Of a DNA stretch of 64,000 nucleotides, positions 15,061 through 29,575 are shown piece after piece; position 1 is the first letter of the stretch; each line of letters starts with the position of its first letter. This DNA is from an uncultured delta proteobacterium (GTDB taxonomy: Bacteria; Desulfobacterota; Binatia; Binatales; Binataceae). Both the position numbers and the translations under genes were made by a program. The stretch spans positions 1,152,001-1,216,000 of the forward strand of contig CAWJET010000002.1 in the NCBI GenBank assembly GCA_963842085.1, written 5' to 3'. The notes beneath the pieces were generated by a model, which made no database searches, was not told the origin of the DNA, and saw nothing but the letters and a program-made list of their open reading frames with translations.

Positions 15061-15468
15061 TCAGGCAGCCCGGCCCGCCTTTTCTCTTTCGTGGTTGGAG
15101 GCGTATTCGTTGCGCAATCGGCTCGCCAATTCCAGTGCGATTCTCCGCCACAGCTGTGGATATCTGTCGGCCAGCGCCGAAAAGTCCGATTCCGAAATTC
15201 GCGCGACCACCGAATCAGAAGTTGCGGTGACCGACGCCGAGCGCGGCGTACGTGGATCGACGACCGCCATCTCACCGACATGCTCGCCGGCCTTCCTGCG
15301 GGCCACGATGCGCCTGTCGATCGCAACCGAAAACGCGCCCTTGAGAATCAGAAAAAGATCGGTGTCAGAGGCACCCTGCTCGATGAGTTTCGTTCCCGCA
15401 GGTACCTCTTCCAACTGTACTCGCGGCGCGACTGCTGCCGCCAGGTCCTTGTCACGGACCAAGGACTG
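15061..15468 (-). pseudogene. Isolated cNMP-binding domain resembling a truncated Pycsar PycTIR-type effector
   Basis: GEHVGEMA..PRSASVTA and LWRRIALELASRLR; in-frame TAG just before the QSLV motif; no downstream effector domain. Confidence 0.6.
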
Positions 15469-15605
15469 CTAATCCTCTGCGTCTGTCTAACCCCTTAATA
15501 TATAAGCCTTATCTCGGCACTGTGCGGAAATTGTGCGGCAGACCCGCGGTGTCAGAAGCGGTGCGAAGCTCGCGTATTGGTTGGGACGCGGAAACGCCGC
15601 ACGGC

Positions 15606-16736
15606 TCAGGAGACGAGAGCCGCGGGCGGCGTATGGTGATCGTGGTGACTGTGGTGACTGTTATTTCCGTCGTTCCCGCGTGATGGTACGACTGTCCGAG
15701 TCGTCGGCCGCGCGTCGAGATAGTGGTCGCGTCGCTCGACAGCGGCCTTGAGATCCGTGCTAGTGGTGATGTTGTAACGAAGAAAAATCTCGCGGGTTTT
15801 GTGACCTGACAGTTCCATCGCAACTTGCTCGGGAACACCCGCGCGGCTGAGGTTCCGAATTGCGCTGCGTCTAAAGTCATGGACAATCAGCTTGGGATAA
15901 CCGATCGCCGTACAGGCGGAAGCCCAGGCGTCGCGAAAATCCCCAATCCGCTTACCGTTGACGTGGAACACGAAAGTACAATCGAGACGACGCGCGGCTC
16001 GCGCGCGTGTGATTATTTCGGCGAGCTCGCCGGACAGTGGCAATTTGCGCGGTTCTTTGTTTTTAGACTTGTCGGGCGGCAGGTTGATTTCGTTGGCCTC
16101 GATGTCGATATCGGACCACTCAAGTCCCTTCATCTCGGAGACACGCCACCCTGAGAGATAGAGGAAGGCGATCGGGTCGCGCAGACGCTCAGGTAGCTCA
16201 TTCCGAAGGGCGTTGAACTCCGCGTTCTCGACGAATCCTTTTCGGGCGTTATCCTCCGCCAGCATGTCGATCTTCGGCGCGCGAGATAGGCACTCGTCGT
16301 CAACGGCGATCTTGAACGCATGTTTGAGCGCTGCCAGCTCACGGTTGATTGTCGCGTTCGCCGCGCCTTGTTCGATCCGCGCTGTCTTATAGGCTTTAAC
16401 CCGGCCGGCATCGATATCGATGGCTAGATCAGTCCCGAAGTAGCCGCTTAGGTGTTTGATGCTGCCCTCCAGCCGCCGTCCGGATCGGCGGCCCTTATGC
16501 AGGTAATCGGTGCGGATCATTTCGGCGAGGTCTTCGAAGCGCACCTTTTCTTCGGCCTGTCCGAGGAACTTAGCGCCGCGGCGTCCGGTTTCCTTGATCC
16601 TTGCGTTCAGCAAGCGCCGCGCGACGGTTTCGGATTCGCTTTCGGACGACTCGCGATATTCCTGGCCGCGGTGCCCGTAGCGAATCCACCAAATTGTCCC
16701 GCGCAAATAGATGCCGCCTGTGCCGCGTTTACTCAT
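15606..16736 (-). CDS. Tyrosine integrase
   Basis: Arm-binding N-terminus (WWIRY), SAM-like ATINRELAALK, catalytic R (SGWRVSE), K (KSKN), HDFRR, SGHKT..F.RY. Confidence 0.95.
   Translation of the reverse strand: MSKRGTGGIYLRGTIWWIRYGHRGQEYRESSESESETVARRLLNARIKETGRRGAKFLGQAEEKVRFEDLAEMIRTDYLHKGRRSGRRLEGSIKHLSGYFGTDLAIDIDAGRVKAYKTARIEQGAANATINRELAALKHAFKIAVDDECLSRAPKIDMLAEDNARKGFVENAEFNALRNELPERLRDPIAFLYLSGWRVSEMKGLEWSDIDIEANEINLPPDKSKNKEPRKLPLSGELAEIITRARAARRLDCTFVFHVNGKRIGDFRDAWASACTAIGYPKLIVHDFRRSAIRNLSRAGVPEQVAMELSGHKTREIFLRYNITTSTDLKAAVERRDHYLDARPTTRTVVPSRGNDGNNSHHSHHDHHTPPAALVS
15634..15660 (+). repeat. Triple 9-bp repeat TGGTGA(TC/CT)G, candidate left integrase arm sites
   Basis: tggtgatcg-tggtgactg-tggtgactg; matches 29315-29341 at 25 of 27 positions. 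Confidence 0.75.
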
Positions 16737-17728
16737 GACTTTCGCTCCTTCTTTTTCATCGGATTCTCACTTTGCCGGATTTCCGTGGCCGCATCGGCGA
16801 CTTTTTTTCTATCGCGTGCGGCCTGCGCGGCGTCGCGGGCTGGGATACGGGCCGCTCGGCAGGTAGGGCAATAGATGCGCCTGGCCGTCGCGTGCCCGAC
16901 TCTCTTACCTGGTGTCGGCTGGCTTGCGGACATAAAAAACAGGCGCGCGCAGGACGAGCAGCGCGCAATCGCCGCGGCCCGGACGGTTGCGGCGACGAGT
17001 TCCAGCGCGATCAACGCTAGGACTGAGCCCGTGTAGCGGTTGGCGCCGAGTTGCGGACGGACACTTCGGCCTTCGATGCCGACGTGGAATCTAACGTCCG
17101 CGATTACGAGCCAGCGATTCAGATTCTCCGCCAGCCGCTCGCGGGGATCGGAAAGAAACTGAGCGATTGGATGGTCCGGCGCATAGCCATCGATTTGCTG
17201 CCATGTTTCCGGGGCGACTTTAGCTCCGCGCTGGGTTGTCGCCGCGGCCTCGAGCAGGCGATTAGCGTCGGCGGCGCGCATACGCCACTGCGATACCGGC
17301 TCGGAATAGAGCAGCGGCGGTTCCCGCCCTATTCGTGGAAGGCAAATGAGGGTCGTCCCACCAGCCCAATGCGGCGCGGCAGGGAATTCTTCGGGCAATA
17401 CGTTGCATCCCATCGTCTCGACGGGCTGATGGTATGCGACGAAATTATGCTGTTCGCAGAGCCAGAGCGGCCCATAAGCGCGGGCAAACTCGAGCACGTC
17501 CTCATTTCCGGCCACGGGTGTTTCGAGGGCAAGGAAACTTTCGAGCATTGCGCCAATCTCGATCTTCCGCGCCGCCGCTTTCGCGCTCCAGAGAAGATCG
17601 TCGCCGGCGAGACTGAGGGTTTCGGGCGCTGACACACTGGAGCCGTCGATCGGCCGGGAGAGACCATAGGCCGTAAACAGGTCGCCCAGTCGCGCTATAC
17701 CTACGGGTTCTGGTGGCCCCTTCGTCAT
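16733..17728 (-). CDS. Hypothetical protein with C-terminal zinc finger (CGNR-like position), coupled to int
   Basis: CSSC..F and IYCPTCR; stop overlaps the int start. Confidence 0.7.
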   Translation of the reverse strand: MTKGPPEPVGIARLGDLFTAYGLSRPIDGSSVSAPETLSLAGDDLLWSAKAAARKIEIGAMLESFLALETPVAGNEDVLEFARAYGPLWLCEQHNFVAYHQPVETMGCNVLPEEFPAAPHWAGGTTLICLPRIGREPPLLYSEPVSQWRMRAADANRLLEAAATTQRGAKVAPETWQQIDGYAPDHPIAQFLSDPRERLAENLNRWLVIADVRFHVGIEGRSVRPQLGANRYTGSVLALIALELVAATVRAAAIARCSSCARLFFMSASQPTPGKRVGHATARRIYCPTCRAARIPARDAAQAARDRKKVADAATEIRQSENPMKKKERKS

Positions 17729-17776
17729 ACGATAATAATACACGAGTTGCAGGCACGCCGCAACCGTGAGACAACT

Positions 17777-17983
17777 ATGCGCATGAGCGCGCAACGCAAC
17801 GAAGAAACACTTCTGTCGCTCGAACAGGTTCTACAGCGCCTGCCGATTGAAGGGCGGCCGCACCGGGTGACGCTTTGGCGTTGGATAAACCAAGGCGTTT
17901 TTCCGCAGCCGTTACGACTCGGGCTGCGCAAGGTCCGATGGCGCGAAAGTGACGTCGATGCCTGGCTGGCGGAACGCAAATGA
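17777..17983 (+). CDS. alpA: AlpA family regulator / excisionase
   Basis: TLWRWINQGVFPQPLRLG.RKVRWRESDVDAWL. Confidence 0.88.
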   Translation: MRMSAQRNEETLLSLEQVLQRLPIEGRPHRVTLWRWINQGVFPQPLRLGLRKVRWRESDVDAWLAERK

Positions 17984-18285
17984 TCACGCTCGACGCTCTT
18001 ATTGCCGGCGAGTGTCCGACCTCGCGCGATGAGGCGGTCGCTCTGATGGGCTTGCTCGCGGCTGCTCACGCCAAGCTCGCTGCGGTCATGGCGGTGGCTA
18101 TGGTCGAGACGCCGACCGCGGACCGGCTGCTGGACGTTGACGAAGCCGCCCAGATGCTCAAGGTGGATCGGCAGTGGATATACCGGCGCACGCGCAAACT
18201 TCCGTTCGTCGTTCGCCTCGACGGCGCCGTCCGCTTTAGTGCCTCGGGCATCGAGCGCTTCATCGCGGCAAAGAGGGGGCGGTGA
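17980..18285 (+). CDS. HTH_17 (excisionase-like) DNA-binding protein
   Basis: LLDVDEAAQMLKVDRQWIYR..VRF..IERFI; ATGA overlap with alpA. Confidence 0.85.
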   Translation: MITLDALIAGECPTSRDEAVALMGLLAAAHAKLAAVMAVAMVETPTADRLLDVDEAAQMLKVDRQWIYRRTRKLPFVVRLDGAVRFSASGIERFIAAKRGR

Positions 18286-19934
18286 TGGAACCTGCGCGAT
18301 TGAAAATAGTGAAGGCGTTGGAACCGACGCGACCGCGGATAGTGGTGCTGCCAGGCGAGCGGCCGTGGCTGATTGACGGAGCCGAAGAGGCTGTTCTCGA
18401 GAACTACGCTCGATGGGGGCTCTTTCAGCCCGGTGACTTGCTGGTTCGAACGACAACCTTGAGCGCCGAAGACGTTGAAAAAGAGAAACTCATCCGTCGC
18501 AAGGCCGGCTCCGTCATTTTGCGACGAGCCACCGCGCCGATGCTTGAGGACATTTTCGGTCGCGCCATCCACTGGGTGGTGCGGGTCCCGGACAAAGACA
18601 AGGTGCCGGGCTCATTCAAAGACAAGGTGATTGATTGCCCGCCCAAGGTCGCGGCGATCTACCTCTCCCGGGAAGGTATGTGGCGACTGCCGCGTCTGAC
18701 AGGGATTATCGAGGCGCCGATCATGCGGCCCGACGGGAGCGTCCTGACCGCGCCCGGTTACGATGAGGCGACCGGCCTACTCCTCCAGTCTCCGATTGCC
18801 TGGCCGGCGCTGCCCGCACCGTCGAAAGGTGCGGCCGAGGCCGCTGCAAAGTGTCTAATCGAGCCCTTTGACGAATTCCCGTTTTCATCACGCGCCGGCT
18901 CGAGCGTGCTGCTCAGTGCGATGCTCACAGGGCTTCAACGGCGGCTGCTGCCCACTGCTCCCGCGCACGCATTCGACGCGAGCATTCAAGCCGCGGGCAA
19001 AACGATTCAGGGCGACTGCGTATCGCTATTTCTTACCGGACGCGAAATAGCGTCGATGACCTTCAATTCAAACGAAGAAGAATTCCGCAAAAAATTGATG
19101 GCCGGCCTGGTTGCTGGCGATGCGATTTTCGAGATCGACAACATCACGAAACCGCTGCGCTCCGACACTCTCGCGTCGATTCTGACGAAGACACTGCACA
19201 GCGATCGGATCATGGGGCTTGGCGAGAACCGATCGGTGCCCACCAATTGCCTGTTCATTCTTACAGGCAATAATCTACAGTTTTCGGGCGATATGCCGAG
19301 TCGCGTGATCAGTTCGCGCGTCGAGCCCGACTGTGAGCGGCCCGAGGAACGGACCTTCAAAATTTGCAACCTTCGCGCCCATGTGCTCGAGCGTCGGCCG
19401 CAGTTCGTGAAGGCGGCTCTAACGATCTTGCAATCCTATTTTCACGCCGGGCGGCCGCCTCAGGGTCTTAAGCCGTTCGGCCGATTCGAGCAGTGGTCCG
19501 ACGAGATTCGCAGCGCGATCGTCTGGGCGGGGCTCCCAGATCCTTGCTTAAGCCGTGATGAAGTAATCGACGCCGATCCAGAGCGCGACGCCGCACTCGC
19601 AGTCCTCGAAAACTGGTTCCGGGTCCTCGCCGATGCGCAGACCACCATTCAGGCGTTGATCCGATGTGCAACCGGTCACGGGATGCTCGGCGATCATGAT
19701 TTCAGGCCGCCCGACGACGAGCTGAAAACCGCGCTGCTCGGAATCGCCGCAGACTATGAGTGCGCCGACAAGATATCTTCGCAACGGCTCGCTGCGTGGT
19801 GTCGCGATCGTGTCGGTCGCATCTTCGGCGAGTACAAACTTGTCCGCAGCGGCAAGGCGCACGCGGGCTTTCAGACTTGGCAAATTGTGAAATTAAACAA
19901 ACCGACGGAAACGATAGTAACTAAGGAGATTTGA
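18282..19934 (+). CDS. Replication-associated SF3-like helicase/ATPase without a recognisable primase domain
   Basis: PIMRPDGS...GYD motif, Walker A-like QAAGKT, Walker B-like FEIDN, motif C-like ILTGNN. Confidence 0.72.
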   Translation: MMEPARLKIVKALEPTRPRIVVLPGERPWLIDGAEEAVLENYARWGLFQPGDLLVRTTTLSAEDVEKEKLIRRKAGSVILRRATAPMLEDIFGRAIHWVVRVPDKDKVPGSFKDKVIDCPPKVAAIYLSREGMWRLPRLTGIIEAPIMRPDGSVLTAPGYDEATGLLLQSPIAWPALPAPSKGAAEAAAKCLIEPFDEFPFSSRAGSSVLLSAMLTGLQRRLLPTAPAHAFDASIQAAGKTIQGDCVSLFLTGREIASMTFNSNEEEFRKKLMAGLVAGDAIFEIDNITKPLRSDTLASILTKTLHSDRIMGLGENRSVPTNCLFILTGNNLQFSGDMPSRVISSRVEPDCERPEERTFKICNLRAHVLERRPQFVKAALTILQSYFHAGRPPQGLKPFGRFEQWSDEIRSAIVWAGLPDPCLSRDEVIDADPERDAALAVLENWFRVLADAQTTIQALIRCATGHGMLGDHDFRPPDDELKTALLGIAADYECADKISSQRLAAWCRDRVGRIFGEYKLVRSGKAHAGFQTWQIVKLNKPTETIVTKEI

Positions 19935-20397
19935 AAATGGATCGGAAAGAATTCGAGGGGATCGAAACTGAGGAGCGCGTCACATTTTCGCTGAACGATG
20001 CCTGGCGGATCGTCGCCGAAGGGCCCGAGGCCGCGGTCGATCGTGCTCTCGCGCGCATCGCGCCATTCCGCCTCGAGGTCGCCGAGGTCCTGCGCGAACG
20101 GCAGGGGTTGCCTAAGCGCGGCGAAGAAATCGTCAGGCGAGAGGTGTCGGCGAACGTGCCGAGCAAAGAGGTGCAGCGCGCGAACTATATCAAATGGTTC
20201 AGCGAGAAAGGTATGTACTATAGGCCCAGCGAGCAGGAGCTTGACGCGATGTTCGCGCAGGTTAATGAGGGGGATGAGATTTTTTTGATTTCGCCCACTC
20301 GTTCACGGTGCGCCGTCCGAATGGGCTCCTTGTGGCTGTGGACCGCAAGGGCCGCGTCACTCCGCCGTCGCCGTACAGCCCGGCGCTGAAAAAGTAG
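19931..20397 (+). CDS. Hypothetical protein with an apparent -1 frame switch at the T7 run (20280-20286)
   Basis: Frame 0 ends at 20389 with an atypical tail. The -1 frame continues DFAHSFTVRRPNG...ALKK* to 20397 with GC3-rich codons. Confidence 0.6.
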
Positions 20398-20453
20398 AAA
20401 AGGAACGGCCGCGAGCGTTACGAGCGCCGGCGGCCGTGACGGAGAGAAACGCA

Positions 20454-21284
20454 ATGAGTCCGACGACCATATCAGAGCCGCGCGTGCCGTGGCGCAACGA
20501 TCTGCGCGCGGAGTTGAATTCGATCGCGAACTGCAACCTTCACAAGTACACAGGAATCGAAGGGCTGTCCCTCGGGCTGCACGTCATTCACGTGCATCCG
20601 CCAGACTACGTGAGTAAGGACGACTACACCTTTAAGCTGTCCTGGAAGGAGCGACGACTCACTCGCGACCCGCACCGGCCGCAACCGGCGCTATCGCGGC
20701 AAAGGTTTGACGAGCTGGTGGATCATGAACGCCGATTCGGCCGGCGCTCACGCATCGCAGACGAGGATCGCGTGCTCTCGGGCGTCGATCTATTGGCCGA
20801 CAACTCGTGGCCTTTTTGTCGCACTTGCGGCCTGCCCTTCGCCGCGATGCTGAATGGGCACCCGAGACAGGGCTTTTGGGTGTGTCGAATCGAGGACGGC
20901 GCCGATCTCTGCGAGTGCTGCTGGCTGGCTGAGCATTACGCCGGCGACCGCCAAGCGATGATTCAGCACGTGCTCGCGCAAGACCTCGGCGGCGACGTGA
21001 TGCGTGCGTCCGTCAGACTGGGGCTCCGCCGCGGGTGGGATGACGACACCATATTTTTTCGGAACGTGGAGGCCTACTGGACCTCGCCCGGACTCTTCGA
21101 ATTGCTTCGGCTTCATCGGGTCAGCATGTCGGAATCCGCCGGAGTGATCTTGCAGGTGCTCGAGGCGCTGATTGCTGAGGCGAAACCCGAGGAGCGGTTG
21201 TCGAAGCAACAGAGGGACGAGCGACGCGCGGCACTGTGGCGCGACGAGCAGCGCGATCCGCGCACGCTCGCGGCTATCGGGTGA
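20454..21284 (+). CDS. Hypothetical protein with Cys motifs
   Basis: CRTC and CECC motifs; GGAGAG upstream of the ATG. Confidence 0.6.
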   Translation: MSPTTISEPRVPWRNDLRAELNSIANCNLHKYTGIEGLSLGLHVIHVHPPDYVSKDDYTFKLSWKERRLTRDPHRPQPALSRQRFDELVDHERRFGRRSRIADEDRVLSGVDLLADNSWPFCRTCGLPFAAMLNGHPRQGFWVCRIEDGADLCECCWLAEHYAGDRQAMIQHVLAQDLGGDVMRASVRLGLRRGWDDDTIFFRNVEAYWTSPGLFELLRLHRVSMSESAGVILQVLEALIAEAKPEERLSKQQRDERRAALWRDEQRDPRTLAAIG

Positions 21285-21340
21285 AAGCACTTGAGCGAGC
21301 GGCGCTGGACCGGGCGCACGGCTGAGGGAGTCCGACCGAC

Positions 21341-21751
21341 ATGAGGTACACCGATACCTTTGAGGTTGGCTGGGCCTTGGTCAAACGCTCGACGGGGAAG
21401 GCGATTCTATGCGTTGGCCGCCCGCCTTGTGTCATCGCCGGCAATGACATGTGGGTGCCGCGCAGCCAACTTCGCTGCGACCTAAGTCGTGTCGGTGACT
21501 ACGGACTCCTAGTTGTAACCGGCTGGTGGGCGAACAAGAGCGGCCTACTCGATATTGACGACGTTGACGACGACCGCTGCGATGAACATCACGAACCACC
21601 AGCACCGCTCCGGCTGGTCGAGACTGAGCAGACTTATCGCCGCCTGGCGAACGAGCATCACCCTGATCACGGCGGCAACCTTCGCGTGATGCAAGCGATC
21701 AACTTGTTAATAGACGCGGTGCACAGGGACCTGCGCCGCGCAAATGGGTGA
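21341..21751 (+). CDS. Phage-type small domain fused to a C-terminal J-domain
   Basis: YRRLANEHHPDHGGN..MQAIN (HPD motif); GGGAG RBS. Confidence 0.7.
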   Translation: MRYTDTFEVGWALVKRSTGKAILCVGRPPCVIAGNDMWVPRSQLRCDLSRVGDYGLLVVTGWWANKSGLLDIDDVDDDRCDEHHEPPAPLRLVETEQTYRRLANEHHPDHGGNLRVMQAINLLIDAVHRDLRRANG

Positions 21752-21805
21752 AATGCAGACATCGGAAATTTTTCAGGCACGCCTTGAGTGTGCTCTTTGT
21801 CGCGC

Positions 21806-21985
21806 ATGGACAGCAATCAAACAGATTCGGGCGCGTTCGTCTCGATTCCGGCCGCGGCGAAAAAATTGGGTGTGAGCACAAAACGGCTTGCGCTGGCGAT
21901 CGATCTGAGGCAGGTGCCGGCGGTCATGCTCGGCCGGCGCAAAGTGATCCCGAGGCAGGCGATCCAGAAGCTACTAGACCAATGA
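21806..21985 (+). CDS. Small HTH_17/excisionase-like protein
   Basis: VSIPAAAKKLGVS...PAVMLGRRKVIPR.AI.KLL. Confidence 0.75.
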   Translation: MDSNQTDSGAFVSIPAAAKKLGVSTKRLALAIDLRQVPAVMLGRRKVIPRQAIQKLLDQ

Positions 21986-22191
21986 GAAAAACGGACGAGC
22001 TATTCGCCGCCTACCGCGCTTTGATCGACGAGCACCTCGCGATGCGAAAACAGCTCGGCGCGGCAATGCGGACCTTTGAACGCGAATTTCGCGCGTGCAG
22101 GCCGGAAGATGAAGCGTCGCTGGCGTCGAAGTTTCGCGCGATTCTGGAGGCGCTTCGTGCGTCTGAAATAGGAAAGGAGAGCAACGAGTGA
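21982..22191 (+). CDS. Small helical hypothetical protein
   Basis: ATGA overlap upstream and GTGA overlap downstream (translational coupling). Confidence 0.55.
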   Translation: MRKTDELFAAYRALIDEHLAMRKQLGAAMRTFEREFRACRPEDEASLASKFRAILEALRASEIGKESNE

Positions 22192-22865
22192 ACAAGGAAA
22201 TTTTTGATGAAATTTTTGCTGACTTTTCTGCCGCGAACAAACTGATCGAGCGCGATCCGGTCGTGATGGGCGAGAGGCTCGCTCGAGCAGCCTGCGATCG
22301 AATCCTTCTGCCGGATCTGCCGGTGGACGTTCTACACAAGGGTTTAAGTCAGCGGGTTGGTGCGCTGTCGGGCCGCATGAAGGACGCCGTCGAGCGTGGC
22401 AGGGCGTATCTGATTGCCGAAACGATCATCCCGGAATTCGCGAACGATCTGCGCGACTGGATGAGCTATGAGCGAAGGTCAGGGGCGTTGAAGCCCTGGT
22501 CCGCGGCGGACAAGGGCAAGGGCAAGGCTCACCTGTTCGAAGGGTTCGCGTGGCACCGCGAGCCCGGCATGATCATAAGGCGCCTCGAACGTGGCGATGA
22601 TTTCGGAAAGATAACCTTTCGCGAAGTTGAGATCGTCGGCGCTGACGGCACCCATAAGCCTTCGTTCGTACGACGCGATCCGCGTATCGACGACTACCGG
22701 CCGGTCGGTCGGAGCAAAGAGAGTTGGTATCAAGAGTGGTGCACGCCAGAAAGCGTGATCGCCGAAGCTGAGGCGGCGGCGCGGCGCGAGGAGGAAATCG
22801 CAACGCGGCCATTTTCAGCCACGTCCGGGCCGAATGCCGGCGAGGCGACAGTGGTGCGCCGATGA
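22188..22865 (+). CDS. Hypothetical protein
   Basis: AAGGAG RBS; 225-aa ORF within the operon. Confidence 0.7.
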   Translation: MNKEIFDEIFADFSAANKLIERDPVVMGERLARAACDRILLPDLPVDVLHKGLSQRVGALSGRMKDAVERGRAYLIAETIIPEFANDLRDWMSYERRSGALKPWSAADKGKGKAHLFEGFAWHREPGMIIRRLERGDDFGKITFREVEIVGADGTHKPSFVRRDPRIDDYRPVGRSKESWYQEWCTPESVIAEAEAAARREEEIATRPFSATSGPNAGEATVVRR

Positions 22866-22924
22866 GCGGAATTTGCGTCGGCGGGATCGCGATCGAGATT
22901 ATGTCCAATGAAAGGGGGAATTCC

Positions 22925-23257
22925 ATGTATGGTTTAACAGAGCTCTCAACTTATGGCCTGAGAGAGGCCGTGCGCCGCGTTATGACGGCGATGAATGAAG
23001 ATCCCCGCGCAGGGGAAGCGATGCTGCGAGCGCGCGGTAAGGGCGGGCTCGTAGGCGTGTCGCTTCACGCATCTCCACCAGGTTCGCAACCATATCCCGG
23101 AAAACGTGCACCGTCGCCGTTTCCGCCGGCGGATGACTGGCGGCCGTCAAATCCCGGTGTAGTCGAGTCCGACGAAGATGACGACGACGGTCTCGAGATG
23201 GGCGTTCAATTTCCAGATCGATCGACGAACCGCAGTCGCCGAAAAAAGGGGAAGTAA
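22925..23257 (+). CDS. Hypothetical protein with acidic then basic tail
   Basis: AAAGGGGG RBS before the ATG; alternative start at 22862. Confidence 0.55.
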   Translation: MYGLTELSTYGLREAVRRVMTAMNEDPRAGEAMLRARGKGGLVGVSLHASPPGSQPYPGKRAPSPFPPADDWRPSNPGVVESDEDDDDGLEMGVQFPDRSTNRSRRKKGK

Positions 23258-23259
23258 AC

Positions 23260-23541
23260 ATGGGCTGGAACACGAAACTGAGCAACGTCGCCAAGTCAGG
23301 ATCGACGACGGCGATCAACGCGCTGACCGCCGCGAATTGCGCCGGCGACGTTGGCAAGGATGCTGGTTTCGCGACGCATCTTTCGGCGGCCCAAAACGCC
23401 GCGATCGCCGCCGTCGCGGGGCTCGGAGGCGCCGCTGCGAACTGCGACGTCTCCCTAGTCTGCAATACAGACACCGGACCAGGCCGGGCCGGAATCGACG
23501 CTGGCGCTGTGATCACGATCACAGTGGTCGAGCGACATTGA
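23260..23541 (+). CDS. Small Ala/Gly-rich hypothetical protein
   Basis: AAGGGG RBS; GC3-rich codons; begins 2 bp after the previous stop. Confidence 0.65.
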   Translation: MGWNTKLSNVAKSGSTTAINALTAANCAGDVGKDAGFATHLSAAQNAAIAAVAGLGGAAANCDVSLVCNTDTGPGRAGIDAGAVITITVVERH

Positions 23542-23554
23542 TGTGTGAAGAAGT

Positions 23555-23698
23555 TTTGCCGAGGCGTGCGGTAGTACCGCCCGCTCGAAAGCCGCCGGTT
23601 TTGCCGCCGGCGGCCCCCTCGGCAAAGCCGAGGCAAGCGCGGCCTTGTTCCCCGCGTGAGGGTTCGGTGCGCCTTCCACGCCGGCCCTCAGCCTCGGC
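23555..23698. ncRNA. Candidate structured RNA/DNA element upstream of the terminase genes
   Basis: Two adjacent multibranch folds closed by perfect 10-bp and 8-bp stems, each enclosing two hairpins. Expression is not shown. Confidence 0.4.
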
Positions 23699-23710
23699 GA
23701 TTTCTGAATC

Positions 23711-24130
23711 GTGATGGAAACTTCAACCGCAATTGAACCGAGTAAGCCTCGACGCACGCCCGCGCTTAAGCGCGACCAACAGCGGCGCCGAAAAGTGACA
23801 GCCTTGGTCCGGCTCAGCGGCCGTGACGATCCTAAGTATCGTCCGGGGTTCCAAATGGCGGCCGAAATTCTTCTGGTCAAAGAGCGCGTCTATTTAAGTT
23901 TGAAAGATCGGGAACTCATTAACCCGGATGGCTCGGTCATCGGTGCGGTCGAAAGTTTCCGAAGACTTTGCGACAGCGCGGGCGCGGCCTTGAAGGCGCT
24001 AGGTCTGCTCCCCAGCTCCGTTCTACCCGATGAGCGTGCCGGATCTCTCGATGCCGTCTTCGAACGGATTTCAAAGGTACGCAGGGTACGCGAAGGGGCC
24101 GCGAGCGGTGAGCAGAGCCCAGCAGCTTGA
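23711..24130 (+). CDS. Putative terminase small subunit-like protein
   Basis: Lies immediately upstream of and overlaps terL; helical, with a P27-TerS-like ALKALGL.P motif. The call is mainly positional. Confidence 0.5.
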   Translation: MMETSTAIEPSKPRRTPALKRDQQRRRKVTALVRLSGRDDPKYRPGFQMAAEILLVKERVYLSLKDRELINPDGSVIGAVESFRRLCDSAGAALKALGLLPSSVLPDERAGSLDAVFERISKVRRVREGAASGEQSPAA

Positions 24131-25576
24131 ACACGCCCGCGAGGACCTCGCGGCATACGCAGCGGCGCTCTACCCTCGGTTCGAACTGCCACCGCACCTG
24201 CGCATTCTCGTTTCGGTCCTCGAGCGCGTTGAGCGTGGCGAACTGGACCGCGTGATTGTGGCGATGCCGCCCCGGCACGGCAAGAGCATGACGACGAGTC
24301 AGTTGTTTCCCGCATGGTATCTCGGGCGCAATCCTACCAAGTCGATCATCGCCAGCTCGTACGGACAGGAACTCGCGAGCGACTTCGGGCGCCGCGTCCG
24401 GAACTTCGCCAGCGAACGATTGCATCGTCAGATCTTCCCCGAGTGTGTGATCGCCGACGACAGCGATAGTGTCCGTCGGTTCCATACGACGGCGGGCGGT
24501 GCGTTTTACGGAATTGGCGCCGGTGGACCGATTACCGGCCGCGGCGCTGACCTGCTGCTGATCGACGACCCGATCAAGAGTGCCGACGACGCGCGCTCGC
24601 CTGCGCTGCGCCGTTCGCTTCAAGAGTGGTACCAGAACGTCCTATATACGCGGGCCGAACCGGGTGCCGCGATCGTTTTGATCCAAACGAGATGGCATCA
24701 AGACGACCTCGCGGGCTGGCTACTCAAAGAGCATGCGAGCGAAGGCTGGAAAGTGATCTCACTGCCCGCAATCGCGGAGGTGAGCGAAGGTTGGAGAAAC
24801 GAAGGCGATGCGTTGTGGCCCGCGCGCTTCCCGCGCGAGACACTGGACCGCATCCGCGAAGCGATCGGCACCACGGCATGGACTGCGCTGTACCAACAGC
24901 GGCCGGCGCCCGAGCAAGGCGCTATCTTCCGGCGCGAGTGGTGGCGGCCGTACGCCGGTCCGGTCGAGTGTCACCGAACAATTTTCTCGCTCGACACGGC
25001 GTATAAGGCCGGCCTGGCGAACGATTATTCGGTGATCGCGATTGTCGGCGAGTCGCGCGACGGGTATTACCTGCGCCACGTCAGTCGCGGAAGGTGGGAA
25101 TTTCCACTGAGGCACTTGCCGAGATCTGGAAACCTCACGCCGTGCTGATCGAGGATGCCGCAAGCGGCCAGTCTCTCATTCAGGCGCTCAAAGCCGAGAC
25201 GCGACTGCCGATCCTGCCAGTCAAGCCGCTCGGCGATAAGGTATCGCGCGCGCATGCCGTCAGCCCGCTGGTCGAGAGTGGTCGCGTGTTTGTTCCTGCC
25301 GAGGCTTCTTGGCTCGCCGACTTCATCGATGAGGCGACGTCATTCCCCGCGGCGCCGCACGACGACCAGGTGGACGCGATCACGCAGGCGCTCAATTACC
25401 TACGGGGCGAGGGACACGGCGAGTATCACTTCATCTCGCTGCGCGAATGCGAGGCGGCGGCGGCCGGCGGCCAAAACTACAGTACGCTAGGCCGCCAGCA
25501 GAGGATCGACCGCCTCGAGGACGGACGACTGGCGCGCCAACGGGCGCGGCGGGGCAGGTTCGCGGGTGTTTGGTAG
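24108..25576 (+). pseudogene. terL: Terminase large subunit, split by a frameshift near 25105
   Basis: Walker A MPPRHGKS, GPITGRGADLLLIDDP, IQTRWH.DD, nuclease SLDTAYK...DYS. The second frame carries LIEDAASGQSLIQ, DK.SRA and PHDDQVDA. Confidence 0.88.
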
Positions 25577-25602
25577 AAGAAAAAATTAGTAGTAGAACCA
25601 CA

Positions 25603-25785
25603 GTGCACCTTTTTGTAGGCAACATTTTGTTTTCGATGACCGAGCGAGAGCTGCGCGATTTGCTGGAGCCATACGACTGTGAGAGCGCGCGGGCGGAAAT
25701 TCACATCGAGGTTGCGCCGAGTTCCCGGTTCCGGTCACCTGATCATCGGCGGGCAGCAGCTCGGGCTCCGCGGTCGGCGTGGTAG
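25603..25785 (+). pseudogene. RRM (RNA-recognition motif) fragment
   Basis: RNP2-like LFVGNI.F..TE.ELRDL joined to a final-strand-like IHIEVA; RNP1 is missing. Confidence 0.55.
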
Positions 25786-26044
25786 CGTCGAACTGCTCGG
25801 GCGGTTGCCCTGCGGAAGCTGCGCGGCACGAGGCCTGATTTAGAATCGCCCCGTAGCGGCAAGGCCGCGAAGGTTTCCGGCAGAGAGCGGATCATCGATA
25901 GGCCGCCTTGTTGCATGGAGCGAAGTTGTCGGCCGCGCGGCAGTTTGCTAACCCACAGACACGACGCTCCGACAAACTGCACGATGAACCTTCCTTGGAA
26001 ACGAAAGCTCCCGACCGGAGAGGCTCTATAGGGAGGCTGAACGG

Positions 26045-26629
26045 ATGGGTGTCTCGCTGTCAGGGCGGGACACTCCGTTAAGGGAACCCGAGTTGCAGCG
26101 CCGTCTGCTCGATGCCCGGGCCGACAGGCGAAATGCGATCCTAAATTGGGGTCAGACCATAGGCATCATCGGCACACTTTTGGTCACGCTTTTCTTTTCC
26201 GCGCGCAATCGGACAGCGCAAGTGAACCAGACGTCCGGCGATTTCATGCTCCGTTTCGATGACAAGCTCAATGCTGGTGGGAGCGGACGTGTTAGCAGGG
26301 CGCTGGATAATGGTGTTCCGCTGACCGGGGACAAGGACGTGTCGGATGACGACATCGACGATTTTCTATCAAATTACGAACTCCTAGCGGCAGCGTATCG
26401 TCATGAATTGATCAACCGAGACATGGCTGAGGACGCGTTCTCGTACGACCTAGAAAAGGCGCTGAAAGAACCGCGCATCGAACAACAACTCGTCGACGAG
26501 AGGCGCGAGGAAAGCGACATCTACGATGGCGTTCTCGAGCTGGCGCGGGCGTGGAATATCAGTACAGATCTGACCGTCCCCGCAAGCCCGACAAGCGCAT
26601 CAAGTCCGACTACTGCGCCGACTCATTGA
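26045..26629 (+). CDS. Single-TM hypothetical cargo protein (DUF4760-like layout)
   Basis: GGAGG RBS, one N-terminal TM helix, helical domain with FLSNYE.LA. Confidence 0.65.
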   Translation: MGVSLSGRDTPLREPELQRRLLDARADRRNAILNWGQTIGIIGTLLVTLFFSARNRTAQVNQTSGDFMLRFDDKLNAGGSGRVSRALDNGVPLTGDKDVSDDDIDDFLSNYELLAAAYRHELINRDMAEDAFSYDLEKALKEPRIEQQLVDERREESDIYDGVLELARAWNISTDLTVPASPTSASSPTTAPTH

Positions 26630-26869
26630 TCGTTATTGAGCGCGAGAGGACTATGACGCTTCGGCCGGGAGACGCTTTGCCCAGGCATCCAGTTTCCGCG
26701 AACCTTCGCTTTTCATGACCGCATTTGTTAAACGGCAAGGATGAATCTCCGCCACACTGCCGCGCTCGCGGGTTTGCTCACCTTCGACGCGATTCTCGCG
26801 GAGGCCTGAAAATTCCCCTTGTCCGGGTGGGTCGACTCACCGAGATCGCTCAAGTAGGCTTTTGGCTGA

Positions 26870-27268
26870 ATGGACGGCGCTATCTGCACGGATTGTGGCC
26901 ACGCGTTTGGAGGCGAGAAACCTGGCGTGCCCTGCCCCGAGTGCGGTTCGATCCGACGTACCATCACCGCCGGCGGGGAACAGAAAGCCAAACCGGAGAT
27001 GAAAGGCTCCGGTACGGTCAACTTCGCGGCTCGGATAGAAACGCACTCGGGCCTGACAGGCAGCGTTATCGTTGACAAACTTGTTGTTGTCTTAATAAAC
27101 AACTGGTTTAGGTTCTGCTTGGGGATCGCCCTAATACTTGTGTTGGAAGCGATTAGCTCGGTTTTGCCCCAATTCTTGGGGTCCGTCGTCCGTGTGGTTT
27201 TCGAGGTGGTGATTTTGCTGTGCGTACCCAATTGGCGAGTCCCTGAAGCCAAAAGAAAACGCTCCTGA
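26870..27268 (+). CDS. Zn-ribbon plus membrane hypothetical protein
   Basis: CTDC..CPECGS followed by two hydrophobic segments. Confidence 0.45.
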   Translation: MDGAICTDCGHAFGGEKPGVPCPECGSIRRTITAGGEQKAKPEMKGSGTVNFAARIETHSGLTGSVIVDKLVVVLINNWFRFCLGIALILVLEAISSVLPQFLGSVVRVVFEVVILLCVPNWRVPEAKRKRS

Positions 27269-27648
27269 TCCGCTGAACCCCCGTGTTAACGGCCTAGGCG
27301 AAGGGCCTGAAAAATGCCCCGGCTCTGGGTTGTTCAAGCCCCTATTATCCAGTAACGGTGAGCAAGCAGAGGATTCACCCTCGACCGGCCTAGGGTTTCT
27401 TTTGGTTGCTCAATGAACGACCGAAATGAACAAGCAGACAACCAGAGAAACCCGCCCTCCGGTTGTTCATCTCGCGGCCGGGCCTACGGATCGGCGTGAC
27501 GCCACGGTTCGGCATCGACACGAACGCCTAACTCGTTTCGCCGATCGCTGATCGCGAGCCCGCGATTCCGCTCGCGCGCGCGATGACGACGTTGCAATGC
27601 CCGCGTGCACAATTCGATCTGCCGAACGTGCCGGCCGGCGCCGGCCGA

Positions 27649-27837
27649 CTAGCGCGAACGGTAGCGTTCGAGCGCGATCAAAGAACCACCAACCAGAAGC
27701 GCCAAGCCACTGGCGACGGTTCCTGGATCGAGCTCCGGAGCAGGCCAAACGCGGGTTGCACCTGCGACTCCTTGGAAGCCAACCGCGAAGACGGCACCAG
27801 CTGCAACGGTCAAAATCCACTTAGGAAGGTTTTTCAT
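27649..27837 (-). CDS. Minimal secreted peptide with VPEID-CTERM-like sorting tail
   Basis: GGAGGAG RBS, signal peptide, APELDP motif, TM helix, basic RYRSR end. Confidence 0.7.
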   Translation of the reverse strand: MKNLPKWILTVAAGAVFAVGFQGVAGATRVWPAPELDPGTVASGLALLVGGSLIALERYRSR

Positions 27838-27859
27838 TGCATCTCCTCCGTAGAAAGAT

Positions 27860-27889
27860 TAGATACAACCAAAAGCATCTGATTGTCAA
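27860..27889 (-). promoter_or_regulatory. Sigma70-like promoter for the CTERM peptide gene
   Basis: Minus strand TTGACA-N18-TATCTA with TG immediately before the -10. Confidence 0.45.
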
Positions 27890-27930
27890 TTCAAAGAGAC
27901 TCAAATCAAATAAAGTCAAATTAAATAAAC

Positions 27931-27954
27931 CATTCGTACGGTCATTCGTACGGT
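27931..27954 (+). repeat. Tandem 12-bp repeat CATTCGTACGGT x2
   Basis: Exact duplication; inverted copy of GTACGGTCC at 28070-28078. Confidence 0.7.
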
Positions 27955-28018
27955 CCTCTACACCGTTCAACCCCAACGGCCCTAGGGGTTTCGTTGCGCA
28001 GGCCCCTGGCAAACCCAA

Positions 28019-28031
28019 CAAATACTTGATT
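28019..28031 (-). promoter_or_regulatory. IHF-consensus site
   Basis: Minus strand AATCAAGTATTTG fits WATCAANNNNTTR. Confidence 0.45.
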
Positions 28032-28199
28032 CGAACGGCTTAAGCCCTTGAAAATAAAGGGAAATATCGGGACCGTACAGGTGTCCAACTGTTTTTCGGG
28101 TGATAAAGGGTGCTTGGTACGAGACGGCGAAGCTACTCACAACAGGGGCCGAAAGCAATTTGCATGGAATTACGCCATATGGTACGGTCTACAGTTTAT

Positions 28200-28430
28200 A
28201 TGGCTGGAACACGATCAATAGATATACAAAAGGGCATCAAGGCCGCCGATAATAGCCGCCGATCCGCATGGGAGCAGTTTCGTAGCGACGAGAAGCTCCA
28301 GCATGCCTACAACGTCAAACCCGAAGAACTGGAATCTCTCTCAAGGCTGGCGATGCTAGGGAACGTCGCAAGCAAGCACGATTATCTTTTCATCCTTAAA
28401 ACGATGCGGGCCAGGCGTCACCGCTACTGA
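28200..28430 (+). CDS. Small hypothetical protein
   Basis: Protein-like helical ORF; start uncertain (28110-28200). Confidence 0.5.
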   Translation: MAGTRSIDIQKGIKAADNSRRSAWEQFRSDEKLQHAYNVKPEELESLSRLAMLGNVASKHDYLFILKTMRARRHRY

Positions 28431-28504
28431 TCGGAGTGATGCCACTTGAGGCGCGTAGAGCGCCGGCGCCAGCATCGCGCTCGCCGCTTGTCCTTCCTGC
28501 TACT

Positions 28505-28592
28505 TCGAGGTCGCGCGTAATGCCGAGGTCGGATAACTTCATTGTCGTCGAGGTCGCGCGTAATGCCGAGGTCGGATAACTTCATTGTCGTC
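28505..28592 (+). repeat. Exact 43-bp tandem duplication
   Basis: 28505-28547 is identical to 28548-28590. Confidence 0.9.
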
Positions 28593-28622
28593 AGTGACGA
28601 CGATGATTTTCGATCCCGCCTT

Positions 28623-29174
28623 TTATTTCTGAGCTTTCGGTTTGCCGGATGTAATGTCGATGAAACCCGTTCGCCCTTCTTGGCCAACCTGGCGCTCTAT
28701 ATCATTCGCGGCTCTGCGCGAGATCTCGTCGAGCAGGTCCGGCCGCTTCTCAGCCAGCTCTTTAACGTGCTCGGCTGCCCATTTATTAAATTGGCCCTCG
28801 CGAGCTCCTGATCCGGCTTGCAGGATGTTCTGAACCTTTTGTTGCACCTGACGTTTGGCCGCCGTGTTTTCGGTCGTCGCTTCTCCCAGTACGGCAAAAG
28901 TAATCGACGCACGTACAGATTCATCGATCGGGATGGTTAAGTAGGCTTCCGGTTGCCTCACTGAACAGCGAGGATAGCGGACAAGGCTCGTCCCGTTCGA
29001 ACCAAATATCTCAATCTCGAACTCTTTGCCGTTTAGCACCGCACATAAGGTCTCTTGATTGCCGAGCAGTTCACGCCCACGATTCGTGAAAACTAAGGCA
29101 GTTACAGTCATCGTGTCCAGGCCCTCGCGCAGCGTTACTATCTCTCCGGCAGCTCTTCCGATTCCGGTCGCCAT
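28623..29174 (-). CDS. Hypothetical cargo protein
   Basis: Lower-GC ORF open to 29306; the ATG at 29174 is a plausible start. Confidence 0.5.
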   Translation of the reverse strand: MATGIGRAAGEIVTLREGLDTMTVTALVFTNRGRELLGNQETLCAVLNGKEFEIEIFGSNGTSLVRYPRCSVRQPEAYLTIPIDESVRASITFAVLGEATTENTAAKRQVQQKVQNILQAGSGAREGQFNKWAAEHVKELAEKRPDLLDEISRRAANDIERQVGQEGRTGFIDITSGKPKAQK

Positions 29175-29314
29175 AGCTTGTTCGGTTTGGCCAGGAACCA
29201 AACTTGCCTGATCGGTTTCCCCGAAGGCCACAACATCACAATTCCACCAGAGTTTGACGCCTAGATTGCTCATACAGTGGATGATAGCAGGTGGAAGTCG
29301 GCGCACGAAACTTT

Positions 29315-29341
29315 TGGTGACTGTGGTGACTGTGGTGACTG
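29315..29341 (+). repeat. Triple 9-bp repeat TGGTGACTG, candidate right integrase arm sites
   Basis: Three perfect tandem copies, 150 bp from the tRNA 3' end. Confidence 0.8.
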
Positions 29342-29490
29342 TATTTTACCCCGTTAGAATTTCTATTGCCCCAGCTTTTCACCCAACCGCACAAAACCTG
29401 TACAATCCGCCTTGATCTCCCGGCTTCCAAACACCGCGCTCTGTTCTCGATGGCCGCTATAACTATCTAATTTTATTGTCTAATTTCAAA

Positions 29491-29575
29491 TGCCGGGGGC
29501 GGGACTCGAACCCGCACGGAGCTTTCGCTCCAGAGGATTTTAAGTCCTCTGCGTATGCCATTTCGCCACCCCGGC
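29491..29575 (-). tRNA. tRNA-Leu (anticodon TAA), CCA not encoded
   Basis: GCCGGGG/CCCCGGC acceptor stem, GAGGA-CTTAAAA-TCCTC anticodon arm, long variable arm GGAGC-GAAA-GCTCC, GTTCGAG T-loop. Confidence 0.97.

Follow-up and report, generated by a model that had tools for sequence, protein, structure and literature searches.

A 14.1-kb island sited at a tRNA-Leu gene, in a stretch of 64,000 nucleotides from an uncultured delta proteobacterium (hereafter, the window), is a damaged representative of a family of small mobile islands that is common among soil bacteria. It encodes both subunits of a phage-type terminase. Because the islands have both parts of a packaging motor and lack a virus shell, they probably use this motor to fill the empty heads of another phage with their DNA. 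Our main reading, to which we give a probability of about two in three, is that it is a decayed copy from a PICI-like satellite family whose members use a complete terminase of their own to enter helper procapsids.

The Island and Its Ends

The integration site is a tRNA-Leu(TAA) gene (29491-29575, minus strand), with the core within the anticodon arm (29533-29547). An earlier note on this DNA had put the left end at 15583, but it lies at 15469/15470, making 15470 the first position of the island: an AGGA-N7-TCCT core-like site that resembles the anticodon arm is found at 15463-15477, host DNA of relatives matches the window up to 15469 and then stops, and short-read contigs branch at 15469. 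The tRNA 3' half is not duplicated at the left end, where the junction truncates a host cNMP-domain gene at its 5' end. The left junction is a hybrid involving a secondary site within that gene, not a tRNA 3' repeat. Tandem 9-bp TGGTGACTG repeats (repeat family D8) occur at 15634-15674, and a repeat search revealed a second set at 29315-29355; in the 4.9-Mb genome, an 18-mer of these repeats is present only in the left set and at 29315-29341. They are probably arm-type sites for the integrase.

The gene layout previously described within ~14 kb at the tRNA-Leu gene was confirmed using Pfam, PHROGs and a tRNA call. The tyrosine integrase gene (int; 15606-16736, minus strand; PF00589, E = 2.7e-18; phrog_1, E = 2e-51) is coupled to a gene for a putative regulator with a C-terminal Cys4 zinc finger, i.e., CxxC..CxxC as read from the sequence (16733-17728, minus strand), whose sole family match in Pfam was to DUF6076 (E = 0.03). 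On the plus strand are genes for an AlpA-family regulator or excisionase (17777-17983; PF05930, E = 8e-9; phrog_66), an HTH_17 excisionase-like protein (17980-18285; PF12728, E = 1.7e-9), and a replicative helicase domain without a primase domain (18282-19934; phrog_29234, E = 3e-91; phrog_19930). The last of these aligns only with residues 313-820, in the C-terminal part of a primase-helicase of 834 aa (45% over 526 aa).

Eight small ORFs, agreeing with the "about eight" of the earlier note, occupy 19937-23541 on the plus strand. The first four (19937-21985) encode a 150-aa protein, a 276-aa protein containing two CxxC motifs, a 136-aa protein whose end is weakly DnaJ-like, and a 59-aa HTH protein, the 150- and 276-aa genes being kept in the closest relatives. 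A 69-aa helical ORF (21982-22191) is 92% identical to its counterpart in the relative L045 (dN/dS 0.07); in close relatives its homologue adjoins a tape-measure gene on the 5' side, and our guess from this position is a tail-assembly chaperone. The next ORF (22188-22865) encodes a conserved 225-aa protein that comes after the tape measure in relatives. Its predicted structure (pLDDT 84.6) is mainly helical and is not that of an HK97 capsid or a portal; fold searches gave nothing at E ≤ 0.001 in BFVD and only generic helical bundles in the PDB. The last two ORFs (22862-23541), of 131 aa (cluster c13) and 93 aa (cluster c96), are shared with five relatives and one relative, respectively.

Directly 5' of terS there is a feature that the earlier note had missed, a tandem pair of three-way-junction RNA structures (23556-23700, plus strand; fold z -4.6). 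In the second unit, 13 of 24 pairs had changes on both sides among six sequences (0/500 shuffles), and searching with the structure yielded two new matches, each just 5' of a terS. The structure may resemble a c4/CI-type antisense RNA; there was no match in Rfam, including the c4/CI-type families. When units were examined for two-part pairing with a target in the same element, 1 of 12 had a perfect 8+8 match to a translation start, and the window copy had none.

Behind the terminase genes is a variable cargo region (26045-29306), with a DUF4760-like ORF, a Zn-ribbon membrane ORF, a short secreted ORF, a 216-227-aa ORF of no assigned family, a small ORF that has paralogues at other places in the genome, and a 43-bp tandem duplication. 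It contained no PADLOC match.

The Two Terminase Subunits

The small subunit, TerS (23711-24130, plus strand), was assigned a P27/HK97-type fold by a family profile and fold searches. PF05119 was matched by 9 of 23 members of the TerS family, the window copy not being among them. Superposition on HK97 TerS gave a middling Z of 7.8 (rmsd 3.6, 83 aligned), and the top eight matches in BFVD were all TerS proteins (best E = 2.6e-3, none at 0.001). A model of window TerS in complex with the TerL of a relative scored 0.73, versus 0.00 for the best control; the mark set for this score was attained by 116/157 solved pairs versus 2/215 mismatched pairs. Contact agreement was at least 92% and partner pLDDT at least 75, with the interface formed by TerS 112-129 and TerL 4-32. 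The C-terminal helix of TerS is predicted by this model to bind TerL, with the proviso that the score may stem from likeness to known terminases.

The large subunit, TerL (24108-25576, plus strand; phrog_38 type, Terminase_6N plus 6C), is split over two frames. That TerL is broken in this copy had been noticed before, and the lesion is real: comparison with three relatives reveals a 16-bp deletion near 25105 that leaves the ATPase part intact and the nuclease part out of frame. Because short-read contigs (three runs from two studies, one run possibly being the source) span the break without gaps, it is not an assembly error. TerL is followed by a broken gene, likewise missed in the earlier note, for an RRM (RNA-recognition motif) protein (25603-25785, plus strand; PF00076, E = 0.023), which is intact 3' of terL in five relatives (cluster c8; PF00076, E = 9e-19 in L045). 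With its TerL frameshifted and its left att site damaged, the window copy is probably immobile on its own; it would need TerL in trans to move, if it can move at all.

TerLs of this kind (type A) form a clade with a support of 1.0 in a 139-sequence tree, the nearest phages falling outside. The clade comprises 18 loci in 12 of the 165 genomes of the host family and is deep (50-82% identity to one member). The best deposited phage TerL is 45% identical. TerS is upstream of TerL at all 18 loci, and TerL is in one frame at 12 and broken at six, i.e., the window copy and five others. Nine of the 17 relatives are complete between tRNA att repeats, measuring 8.4-16 kb and using seven tRNA types. Across 14 sequences, the Walker A and B motifs and the acidic nuclease residues vary little or not at all. 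Comparison with the three closest TerLs gave a dN/dS of 0.10; dS (1.2-1.5) is near saturation, so that this ratio reflects long-term constraint rather than present use. Many intact relatives sharing the layout, with TerL under purifying selection, were what the earlier note had hoped to see in its support, and the 12/18 intact loci and dN/dS of ~0.1 provide them.

Search for Head and Tail Genes

None of the 25 ORFs of the window matched a capsid, portal, protease or tail family at E ≤ 0.1 in Pfam or PHROGs. Among 264 ORFs of at least 60 aa in type-A elements there were no matches to capsid, portal, protease or scaffold families, the only head-tail connector-type match being a neck/tail-completion match in L055. 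As a positive control, the same library detected portal and capsid genes beside the nearest phage TerLs. Neither the PF04860 portal nor the PF05065 capsid was found within 90 kb of any of 72 loci, which include those with a second TerL type (type B, below); the only head-type match at type-B loci was a partial protease in L318 (E = 6e-7). The suggestion that relatives might have a portal or capsid gene here was not borne out in any of the 264 element ORFs. In the sister group, the shortness of many metagenome contigs prevents the exclusion of head genes.

These results bear on the idea that the islands are decayed prophages that have lost their head and tail modules, with terS-terL left over, which is already largely refuted and which we regard as very improbable. 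It would account for the six broken type-A TerLs among 18, the several lesions in the window copy, and the scattered tail-type genes, i.e., the tape measure, a neck gene in L055 and a tail-spike-like gene in L001, which resemble remnants. However, the portal, normally found after terL, would have had to vanish at all 72 loci, with two unrelated TerL types and at many tRNA sites, while att ends are nonetheless intact in nine type-A and three type-B elements. Moreover, the TerL clade is deep and constrained, with no contig carrying a recognized head gene, and the backbone (int, AlpA, primase/helicase) is PICI-like, unlike a prophage early region. Simple decay of a larger element, which the earlier note had kept as a possibility, does not explain the layout, given 18 loci, nine att-complete relatives, and no capsid or portal in 264 ORFs.

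Might a shell or portal instead be present but unrecognized, the elements being cf-PICI-like or small autonomous viruses? The majority of ORFs have no family match, including several of 250-870 aa in relatives, and the 276-aa protein, without a usable match in the Atlas, was seen only as a low-confidence Atlas model. Nevertheless, TerS apart, no unassigned ORF is common to the whole clade, between the att ends of the two smallest complete elements (8.4 and 8.8 kb) every ORF of >300 aa is assigned, the 225-aa ORF is helical, and the CxxC pairs of the 276-aa ORF are conserved, making this extremely unlikely. The concern that one of the small ORFs is a canonical capsid or portal is answered for the 225-aa ORF by its helical model.

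A tape-measure gene is present at 5/18 type-A loci and at 4 of 14 type-B loci examined, with a dN/dS of 0.16-0.25; when that of a relative was searched against the genome containing the window there was no match. Because the closest relatives carry this gene, the original statement "no capsid, portal or tail" stands for this copy but, as regards tails, is not general. The tape-measure genes, being under constraint, point to tailed particles. This argues against a terminase repurposed to cut replication concatemers to unit length, or to drive DNA into vesicles or host gene-transfer-agent-like particles, an explanation to which we attach hardly any probability. Orphan TerL genes without nearby phage genes do occur in these hosts and in Acidobacteria, and in one genus of the host family a cluster with a capsid gene and a different TerL is conserved; both would fit such repurposing.

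A Second TerL Type behind the Same TerS Family

The same TerS family pairs with type-B TerL at 54 loci in 39 genomes. Type B corresponds to phrog_9 (14/14 tested) and is unrelated to type A (best E = 0.45), and the type-B element L294 has the same backbone as the window. Type-B loci are often fragmented, with TerL in one piece at 42/54 and intact att ends in three elements; invariant columns of the type-B alignment retain the ATPase and nuclease motifs. The TerS tree requires six changes of TerL type, and an arrangement with each type in a single clade was rejected (p-AU = 9e-6). The two TerL types have been exchanged repeatedly behind one TerS family. TerL type was predicted by the TerS tail in 27/31 cases and by the TerS core in 20/31.

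Of 83 TerS loci, 60 have their own TerL and 23 have neither type nearby, so that TerL is dispensable in some members. This absence is also compatible with an interference device, in which TerS-TerL, with or without the tape measure, would mainly sabotage incoming phage by occupying portals or cutting concatemers, protecting the host while the island moves by TerS-type hijack or other routes. The frequent swaps of TerL type would equally suit an arms race, and satellites are described as disturbing helper assembly, e.g., PLE Rta in the accessible part of PMC12987554. Yet both the ATPase and the nuclease motifs are retained in types A and B, which would be needless for a decoy, and the TerS of the element is predicted by the complex model to bind its own TerL. 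We consider interference an unlikely main function, although it and packaging are not mutually exclusive.

Elements of the TerS family are present in 44/165 genomes of an abundant uncultured soil family, and may therefore be a main route of gene transfer there. Because terL serves as a hallmark gene for tailed phages, islands of this sort lead to overcounting of prophages, and satellite finders miss or misfile them.

Proposed Mechanism

For packaging by the island's own terminase, we infer the loading of helper procapsids by the element's motor as follows. Helper infection would cause the AlpA and HTH genes to turn on excision and helicase-driven replication. A TerS ring would bind the element's packaging site and recruit its TerL via the C-terminal helix; TerL would cut the concatemer and then dock on a helper procapsid at its portal, and packaging would need no other helper surface. 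A swap of TerL type would change the class of helper, between headful, P22-like and cos, HK97-like phages. Members with a tape measure would probably also make chimeric tails, like PLEs. Against self-packaging, TerL-portal docking is normally cognate and no compatible portal was identified; in the element's own genome, two profiles detected no HK97-type portal or capsid.

We also favor, if only narrowly, a wider proposal: that this is an undescribed, widespread strategy in which a self-encoded TerS-TerL packages the element into helper procapsids, the helper class is changed by swapping the TerS C-terminal helix plus TerL as a module between unrelated terminase lineages, an optional tape measure serves the tail, and the tandem antisense-like RNA before terS times the late genes. 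If true, a large terminase is able to dock on a foreign portal that is not its cognate one. The family makes testable both the basis of terminase-portal specificity and the retargeting of a large terminase to a foreign portal, and the natural swaps of unrelated TerL types, with the TerS tail co-changing, are ready test pairs.

Comparison with Known Satellites

In the literature searched, there was no description of a capsid-less satellite with its own full terminase. P4-like satellites are defined by Psu, Sid and Delta genes and the lack of a terminase; this class was rejected, there being no Psu, Sid or Delta match in Pfam or PHROGs and a terminase being present.

PICIs and SaPIs, in the accessible part of PMC10085698, resemble the island in being tRNA-integrated and ~10-15 kb, in having an integrase, AlpA-type regulator, primase/helicase and TerS in the same order, with cargo behind the packaging genes, and in the absence of capsid and portal. 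The features of a PICI found here were an integrase at a chromosomal att site (PF00589 and tRNA-Leu, with att pairs complete in nine relatives), a regulator of the AlpA/MerR/Stl group (PF05930, E = 8e-9), and a small terminase (family, fold searches and complex model); of the primase-replicase module, the window copy has the helicase alone and several relatives full primase-helicases. However, PICIs redirect the helper TerL by TerS alone, whereas the island family has its own, terL being listed in the same text as a cfPICI-specific component, and tail genes are "forbidden" in its PICI model, whereas some relatives have a tape measure. Reliance on the helper TerL with no other structural or packaging genes does not describe a family with TerL at 60/83 TerS loci and some tape measures. 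The capsid-morphogenesis gene that is optional in PICI type B had no match among ORFs of the window or its relatives, some of which are unassigned.

With cfPICIs, as described in the same part of PMC10085698, the island shares the left half, its own TerS and TerL, and a similar size, but not the defining capsid, portal, protease and head-tail connectors. The TerS-TerL pair is present although TerL is broken in the window copy, and, apart from the neck/tail-completion match in L055, none of these head genes was found among the 264 type-A ORFs, which include those of nine complete elements. The island family would borrow heads, whereas cfPICIs borrow only tails.

The PLEs of Vibrio cholerae rely on the helper's terminase, and their backbone and hosts are unlike those of the island. 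They are capsid-less with their own tape-measure gene, and have been shown to build chimeric tails with it, a model for the tape-measure-bearing relatives; the word "terminase" is absent from the accessible text (PMC12987554). The PLE combination of tape measure, chaperone and baseplate hub was not seen, no hub being recognized and the tape measure being present at 5/18 type-A loci and missing from the window copy. The EPIPs of Mycolicibacterium are satellites that measure ~11 kb and possess TerS and a tape measure but, in the available portion of PMC12822802 (which is inconsistent about a capsid gene), they have a serine integrase and head-tail adaptors and no TerL is listed; the island has a tyrosine integrase and neither a match to the adaptor/stopper nor a tape measure. 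The E. coli SUSP1 "F5" satellites are likewise capsid-less, with tape-measure and baseplate genes, but the preprint gives terminase in 0% of 150 members (bioRxiv 10.64898/2026.10.15.759431). A conceptual precedent is provided by pSSVx and haloarchaeal SRCEs, satellites that have an ATPase of the packaging type and lack a gene for the capsid protein; they have, however, plasmid replicons and spindle-shaped archaeal viruses as helpers, and are not a terminase or tailed-phage system (bioRxiv 10.1101/2025.02.15.638363). Known satellites thus either borrow the helper's motor (PICI, P4, PLE) or make a whole head (cfPICI), and a family with a motor but no head is the missing combination.

The island and its boundaries

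The element occupies positions 15470 to ~29547 of the window, the right end lying in the anticodon arm of a tRNA-Leu(TAA) gene. A left attachment site at 15583, where an earlier note based on the sequence alone had put that end, was rejected, and the junction was placed at 15469/15470. The gene order was as that note had described it: a tyrosine integrase and a Cys4 zinc-finger ORF, both on the reverse strand, diverge from a forward-strand run of AlpA, HTH_17, helicase, eight small ORFs, TerS and TerL, in which stop and start codons mostly overlap. A broken RRM gene lies 3' of terL and is followed by variable cargo. The absence of capsid, portal and tail genes also held, with no match to capsid, portal, protease or tail families among 25 window ORFs; PADLOC found nothing in 13 element ORFs. 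By sequence comparison, the helicase is equivalent to the C-terminal 510 residues of an 834-aa primase-helicase encoded elsewhere in the genome; because helicase-only genes are common among relatives, this form need not represent decay. A tandem 9-bp unit, which as an 18-mer is found nowhere else in the genome, occurs at both ends of the island, and these units are probably integrase arm sites.

Other repeats were seen in the window, i.e., an exact 43-bp tandem duplication in the cargo region (28505-28590), and a long repeat-protein gene (53862-57109; NHL-like repeats by eye) containing a 12-nt tandem repeat tract at 56287-56870.

The window copy is a decayed example of a probable satellite family

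Compared with three relatives, terL in the window carries a 16-bp deletion. Short-read contigs from three runs, belonging to two studies, show the same deletion, which ruled out assembly error as the source of the frameshift and confirmed that TerL is broken in this copy. The left end is also altered: it lacks the expected copy of the 3' half of the tRNA gene, and the element is instead fused, through a core-like site, to a host gene encoding a PycTIR-like cNMP domain; the 5' end of that gene is intact in relatives. An integrase-made deletion between the original attachment site and a secondary site probably shaped this end. Two of the short-read runs (X2 and X5) hold a form joining 15469 to 29489 (the tRNA end), with unknown letters in between, which may be either an empty site or an undeleted left flank; since these are indistinguishable, we did not take the joint as evidence for excision. 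Run X2 has no coverage over ~24.6-27.3 kb. The host gene itself (15061-15462, reverse strand; E 1e-43) has a cNMP-binding domain and no TIR domain; it adjoins an Fpg-like gene, and its 5' end is truncated by the element junction.

A headless layout is conserved among relatives

TerL proteins of the window's type (type A; phrog_38) were found at 18 loci in 12 of the 165 sampled genomes of the host family, with TerS upstream of TerL at all 18 and TerL in one frame at 12. In nine of the 17 relatives the whole element is bounded by a tRNA gene and a partial repeat of it (8.4-16 kb; seven tRNA types). TerL retains its catalytic motifs and has a dN/dS of 0.10 against the three closest TerLs, with dS near saturation. 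Many intact relatives that share the layout, together with a constrained TerL, are what the earlier note had looked to for support. It had also asked whether relatives carry portal or capsid genes at this position: families of capsid, portal, protease and scaffold proteins had no match in 264 ORFs, called with a simple gene caller, from the type A loci and one viral contig. As a positive control, the same library found portal, scaffold and capsid beside the nearest phage TerLs. A tree of 139 TerL sequences united the elements with nine metagenome or viral contigs in one clade (support 1.0), whose sister is two P22-like phages (support 0.90). No head gene was seen in the selected ORFs scanned on the nine clade contigs, several of which are short; for the sister-group contigs, too, the scan covered selected ORFs only.

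The closest relatives carry a tape-measure gene of 596-830 aa, flanked directly by the homologues of window ORFs 21982 and 22188 and with a dN/dS of 0.16-0.25. It is present at five of the 18 type A loci, being broken in one and of another family in one, and is optional because it is absent both from the window copy and from a complete relative (L057/L058). The 225-aa ORF that follows the tape-measure position was predicted to be helical and not a capsid, which answers in the negative, for this ORF, the question of whether one of the small ORFs is a canonical capsid or portal. A fold search with this model gave generic helical bundles only, and Atlas searches for the 225-aa and 276-aa ORFs gave no usable match. 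We consider it very unlikely that a shell gene lies hidden in the element.

In five relatives (G003, G004, G006, G009 and G020) the 3' half of tRNA-Leu is repeated several times in a span of tens of kilobases near the same tRNA-Leu gene, which points to tandem island arrays at that site.

A second TerL type occurs on the same backbone

A profile of TerS detected 83 loci in 49 of the 165 genomes: 18 have a type A TerL within 2.5 kb, 42 have a second type (type B) and 23 have neither. Type B TerLs (phrog_9 in 14/14 tested) have no sequence similarity to type A and were found at 54 loci in 39 genomes, with a median dN/dS of 0.28 (66/91 unsaturated pairs). Three type B elements are complete (11-14 kb), one of them in the window's own genome at tRNA-Leu(TAG). 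Another locus, L294, shares with the window element its integrase (63%), HTH protein (61%) and helicase (51%), and its TerL is of type B. Six switches of TerL type fall on the TerS tree, and a single clade was rejected. The TerS tail, which is predicted to bind TerL, indicated the TerL type correctly in 27 of 31 cases and the core in 20 of 31, in a comparison where four type B rows were anchored at the wrong motif; the TerS tail and terL have probably been exchanged as a module.

Profiles for HK97-type portal (19 places) and capsid (10 places), which do not cover all head types, found neither within 90 kb of any of the 72 loci. When 129 neighbouring ORFs of type B loci were compared with PHROGs (129 of 170 ORFs of at least 100 aa within 8 kb, at 14 of 54 loci, skipping integrases, primases and host genes), there was one partial protease match. 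The earlier note had left room for decay of a larger element. Given the portal-less layout across 72 loci, we now regard prophage decay as improbable: portals would have to have been lost independently in 72 prophages of two TerL lineages, a much less parsimonious history than a layout lacking a portal from the start.

The type B element at tRNA-Leu(TAG) in the own genome, L313 (C2:12755-23958), is an intact 11.2-kb sister element with genes for TerS, a ribosomal protein S21-like protein, an HNH protein and a type B TerL; S21-like genes between terS and terL were also seen at L046, L063 and L308. The own genome further contains a tRNA-Val island that has TerS but no TerL (L316; C2, ~1.04 Mb) and an isolated TerS accompanied by an 83-aa TerL fragment (L315; C1, ~1.278 Mb).

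TerS is predicted to pair with TerL

The window TerS protein itself had no family match, and PF05119 matched nine of 23 aligned relatives. The top eight viral matches of its structural model (pLDDT 79.8) were all TerS (best E 2.6e-3), and the top solved-structure match was HK97 TerS, at a middling level (Z 7.8, rmsd 3.6, 83 aligned). Compared by sequence with solved structures, the TerS profile gave nothing under E 0.5. A complex model of the window TerS with TerL of a close relative reached a score of 0.73 (best of three controls, 0.00), passing a mark reached by 116 of 157 solved and two of 215 mismatched pairs; contact agreement was 92% or more, and partner pLDDT 75 or more. In the predicted interface a conserved C-terminal helix of TerS (112-129) lies on the TerL N-terminus. 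This pass may reflect likeness to known terminases. Taken together, the relatives, the fold matches and the complex model bear out the earlier TerS-like call. With 930 representatives at E<=0.001, this is a large family. A use of the terminase other than packaging seems to us highly improbable.

A structured RNA precedes terS

Upstream of terS, at 23556-23700, lies a predicted tandem pair of three-way junctions (z -4.6) with no match in Rfam. In the second unit, 13 of 24 pairs are altered on both sides across six elements, more than in any of the 500 shuffles or any slid control. Kinship of the six sequences can inflate this count. The first unit alone is weak, and a joint fold of both gave no consensus. 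Searching 151 genomes with the RNA model yielded two additional copies; each lies immediately 5' of a terS and includes the first unit as well. The loops often resemble anti-Shine-Dalgarno or anti-start sequences. When the 12 units were compared with translation starts of the six elements, the only clear bipartite match was that of unit 1 of L057, with 8+8 pairing to a start site of L057 itself; the other 11 had no antisense target there. We claim no general target because pyrimidine-rich loops match ribosome-binding sites by chance, and an antisense or leader function is no more than a lead.

Other elements and TerL homologues in relatives

Several further arrangements were observed. Compact Mu-like elements of ~10-12 kb in the same family (L296-L298, L300-L307) encode the MuA transposase and MuB along with a tape measure; five also have a Mu-type head protease, and some a Mor-like activator or a tail gene. 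The ORFs scanned included no capsid, portal or TerL. These elements are a candidate transposable satellite type. A recurring cassette (L103-L115, L117) comprises a DNA methylase (PF01555), a DUF5681 protein and a TerL that is 35-40% identical to the window's type and forms its own clade in the TerL tree; neither an integrase nor head genes were seen around the cassette. TerL homologues of 600-785 aa (L089-L095, L097, L099-L101; Acidobacteria except L101) lie among housekeeping genes, adjoining myo-inositol-1-phosphate synthase in four cases, with no phage genes near them; they are possibly domesticated terminases. In genus g24 (L077-L086, L118-L120; TerL in 7/7 genomes), TerL, major capsid (phrog_334), DNA-ejection and other structural genes form a conserved cluster beside tamB/omp85 genes; the cluster has neither integrase nor recognised portal and looks gene-transfer-agent-like.

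Discussion

We favour, with a probability of about two in three, satellites that package themselves into helper procapsids. The elements would excise and replicate in the manner of PICIs, and their own TerS-TerL would then load element DNA into the procapsids; a self-encoded terminase would remove dependence on that of the helper and limit contact to the portal. Two profiles (HK97-type portal and capsid) detected no helper in the own genome. That the elements instead act by interfering with a helper is unlikely, although the least so of the alternatives that we weighed.

We found no description of capsid-less satellites with both terminase subunits in the open-access literature searched. Tape measures have been published for the satellites PLEs (PMC12987554), EPIPs (PMC12822802) and SUSP1 satellites (bioRxiv 10.64898/2026.10.15.759431), and the text examined for these lists no TerL. 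phiAH14b has no terminase, according to the part of its description consulted (PMC4936722), and the portion of the HE-PICI paper covered (PMC10111431) held nothing relevant to this design. Having no head genes, the element falls outside the cfPICIs, as far as that class is defined in the sections of PMC10085698 that we used. In its probable working it resembles the PICIs, three core features of which it displays, whereas its self-encoded TerL breaks their TerS-only rule.
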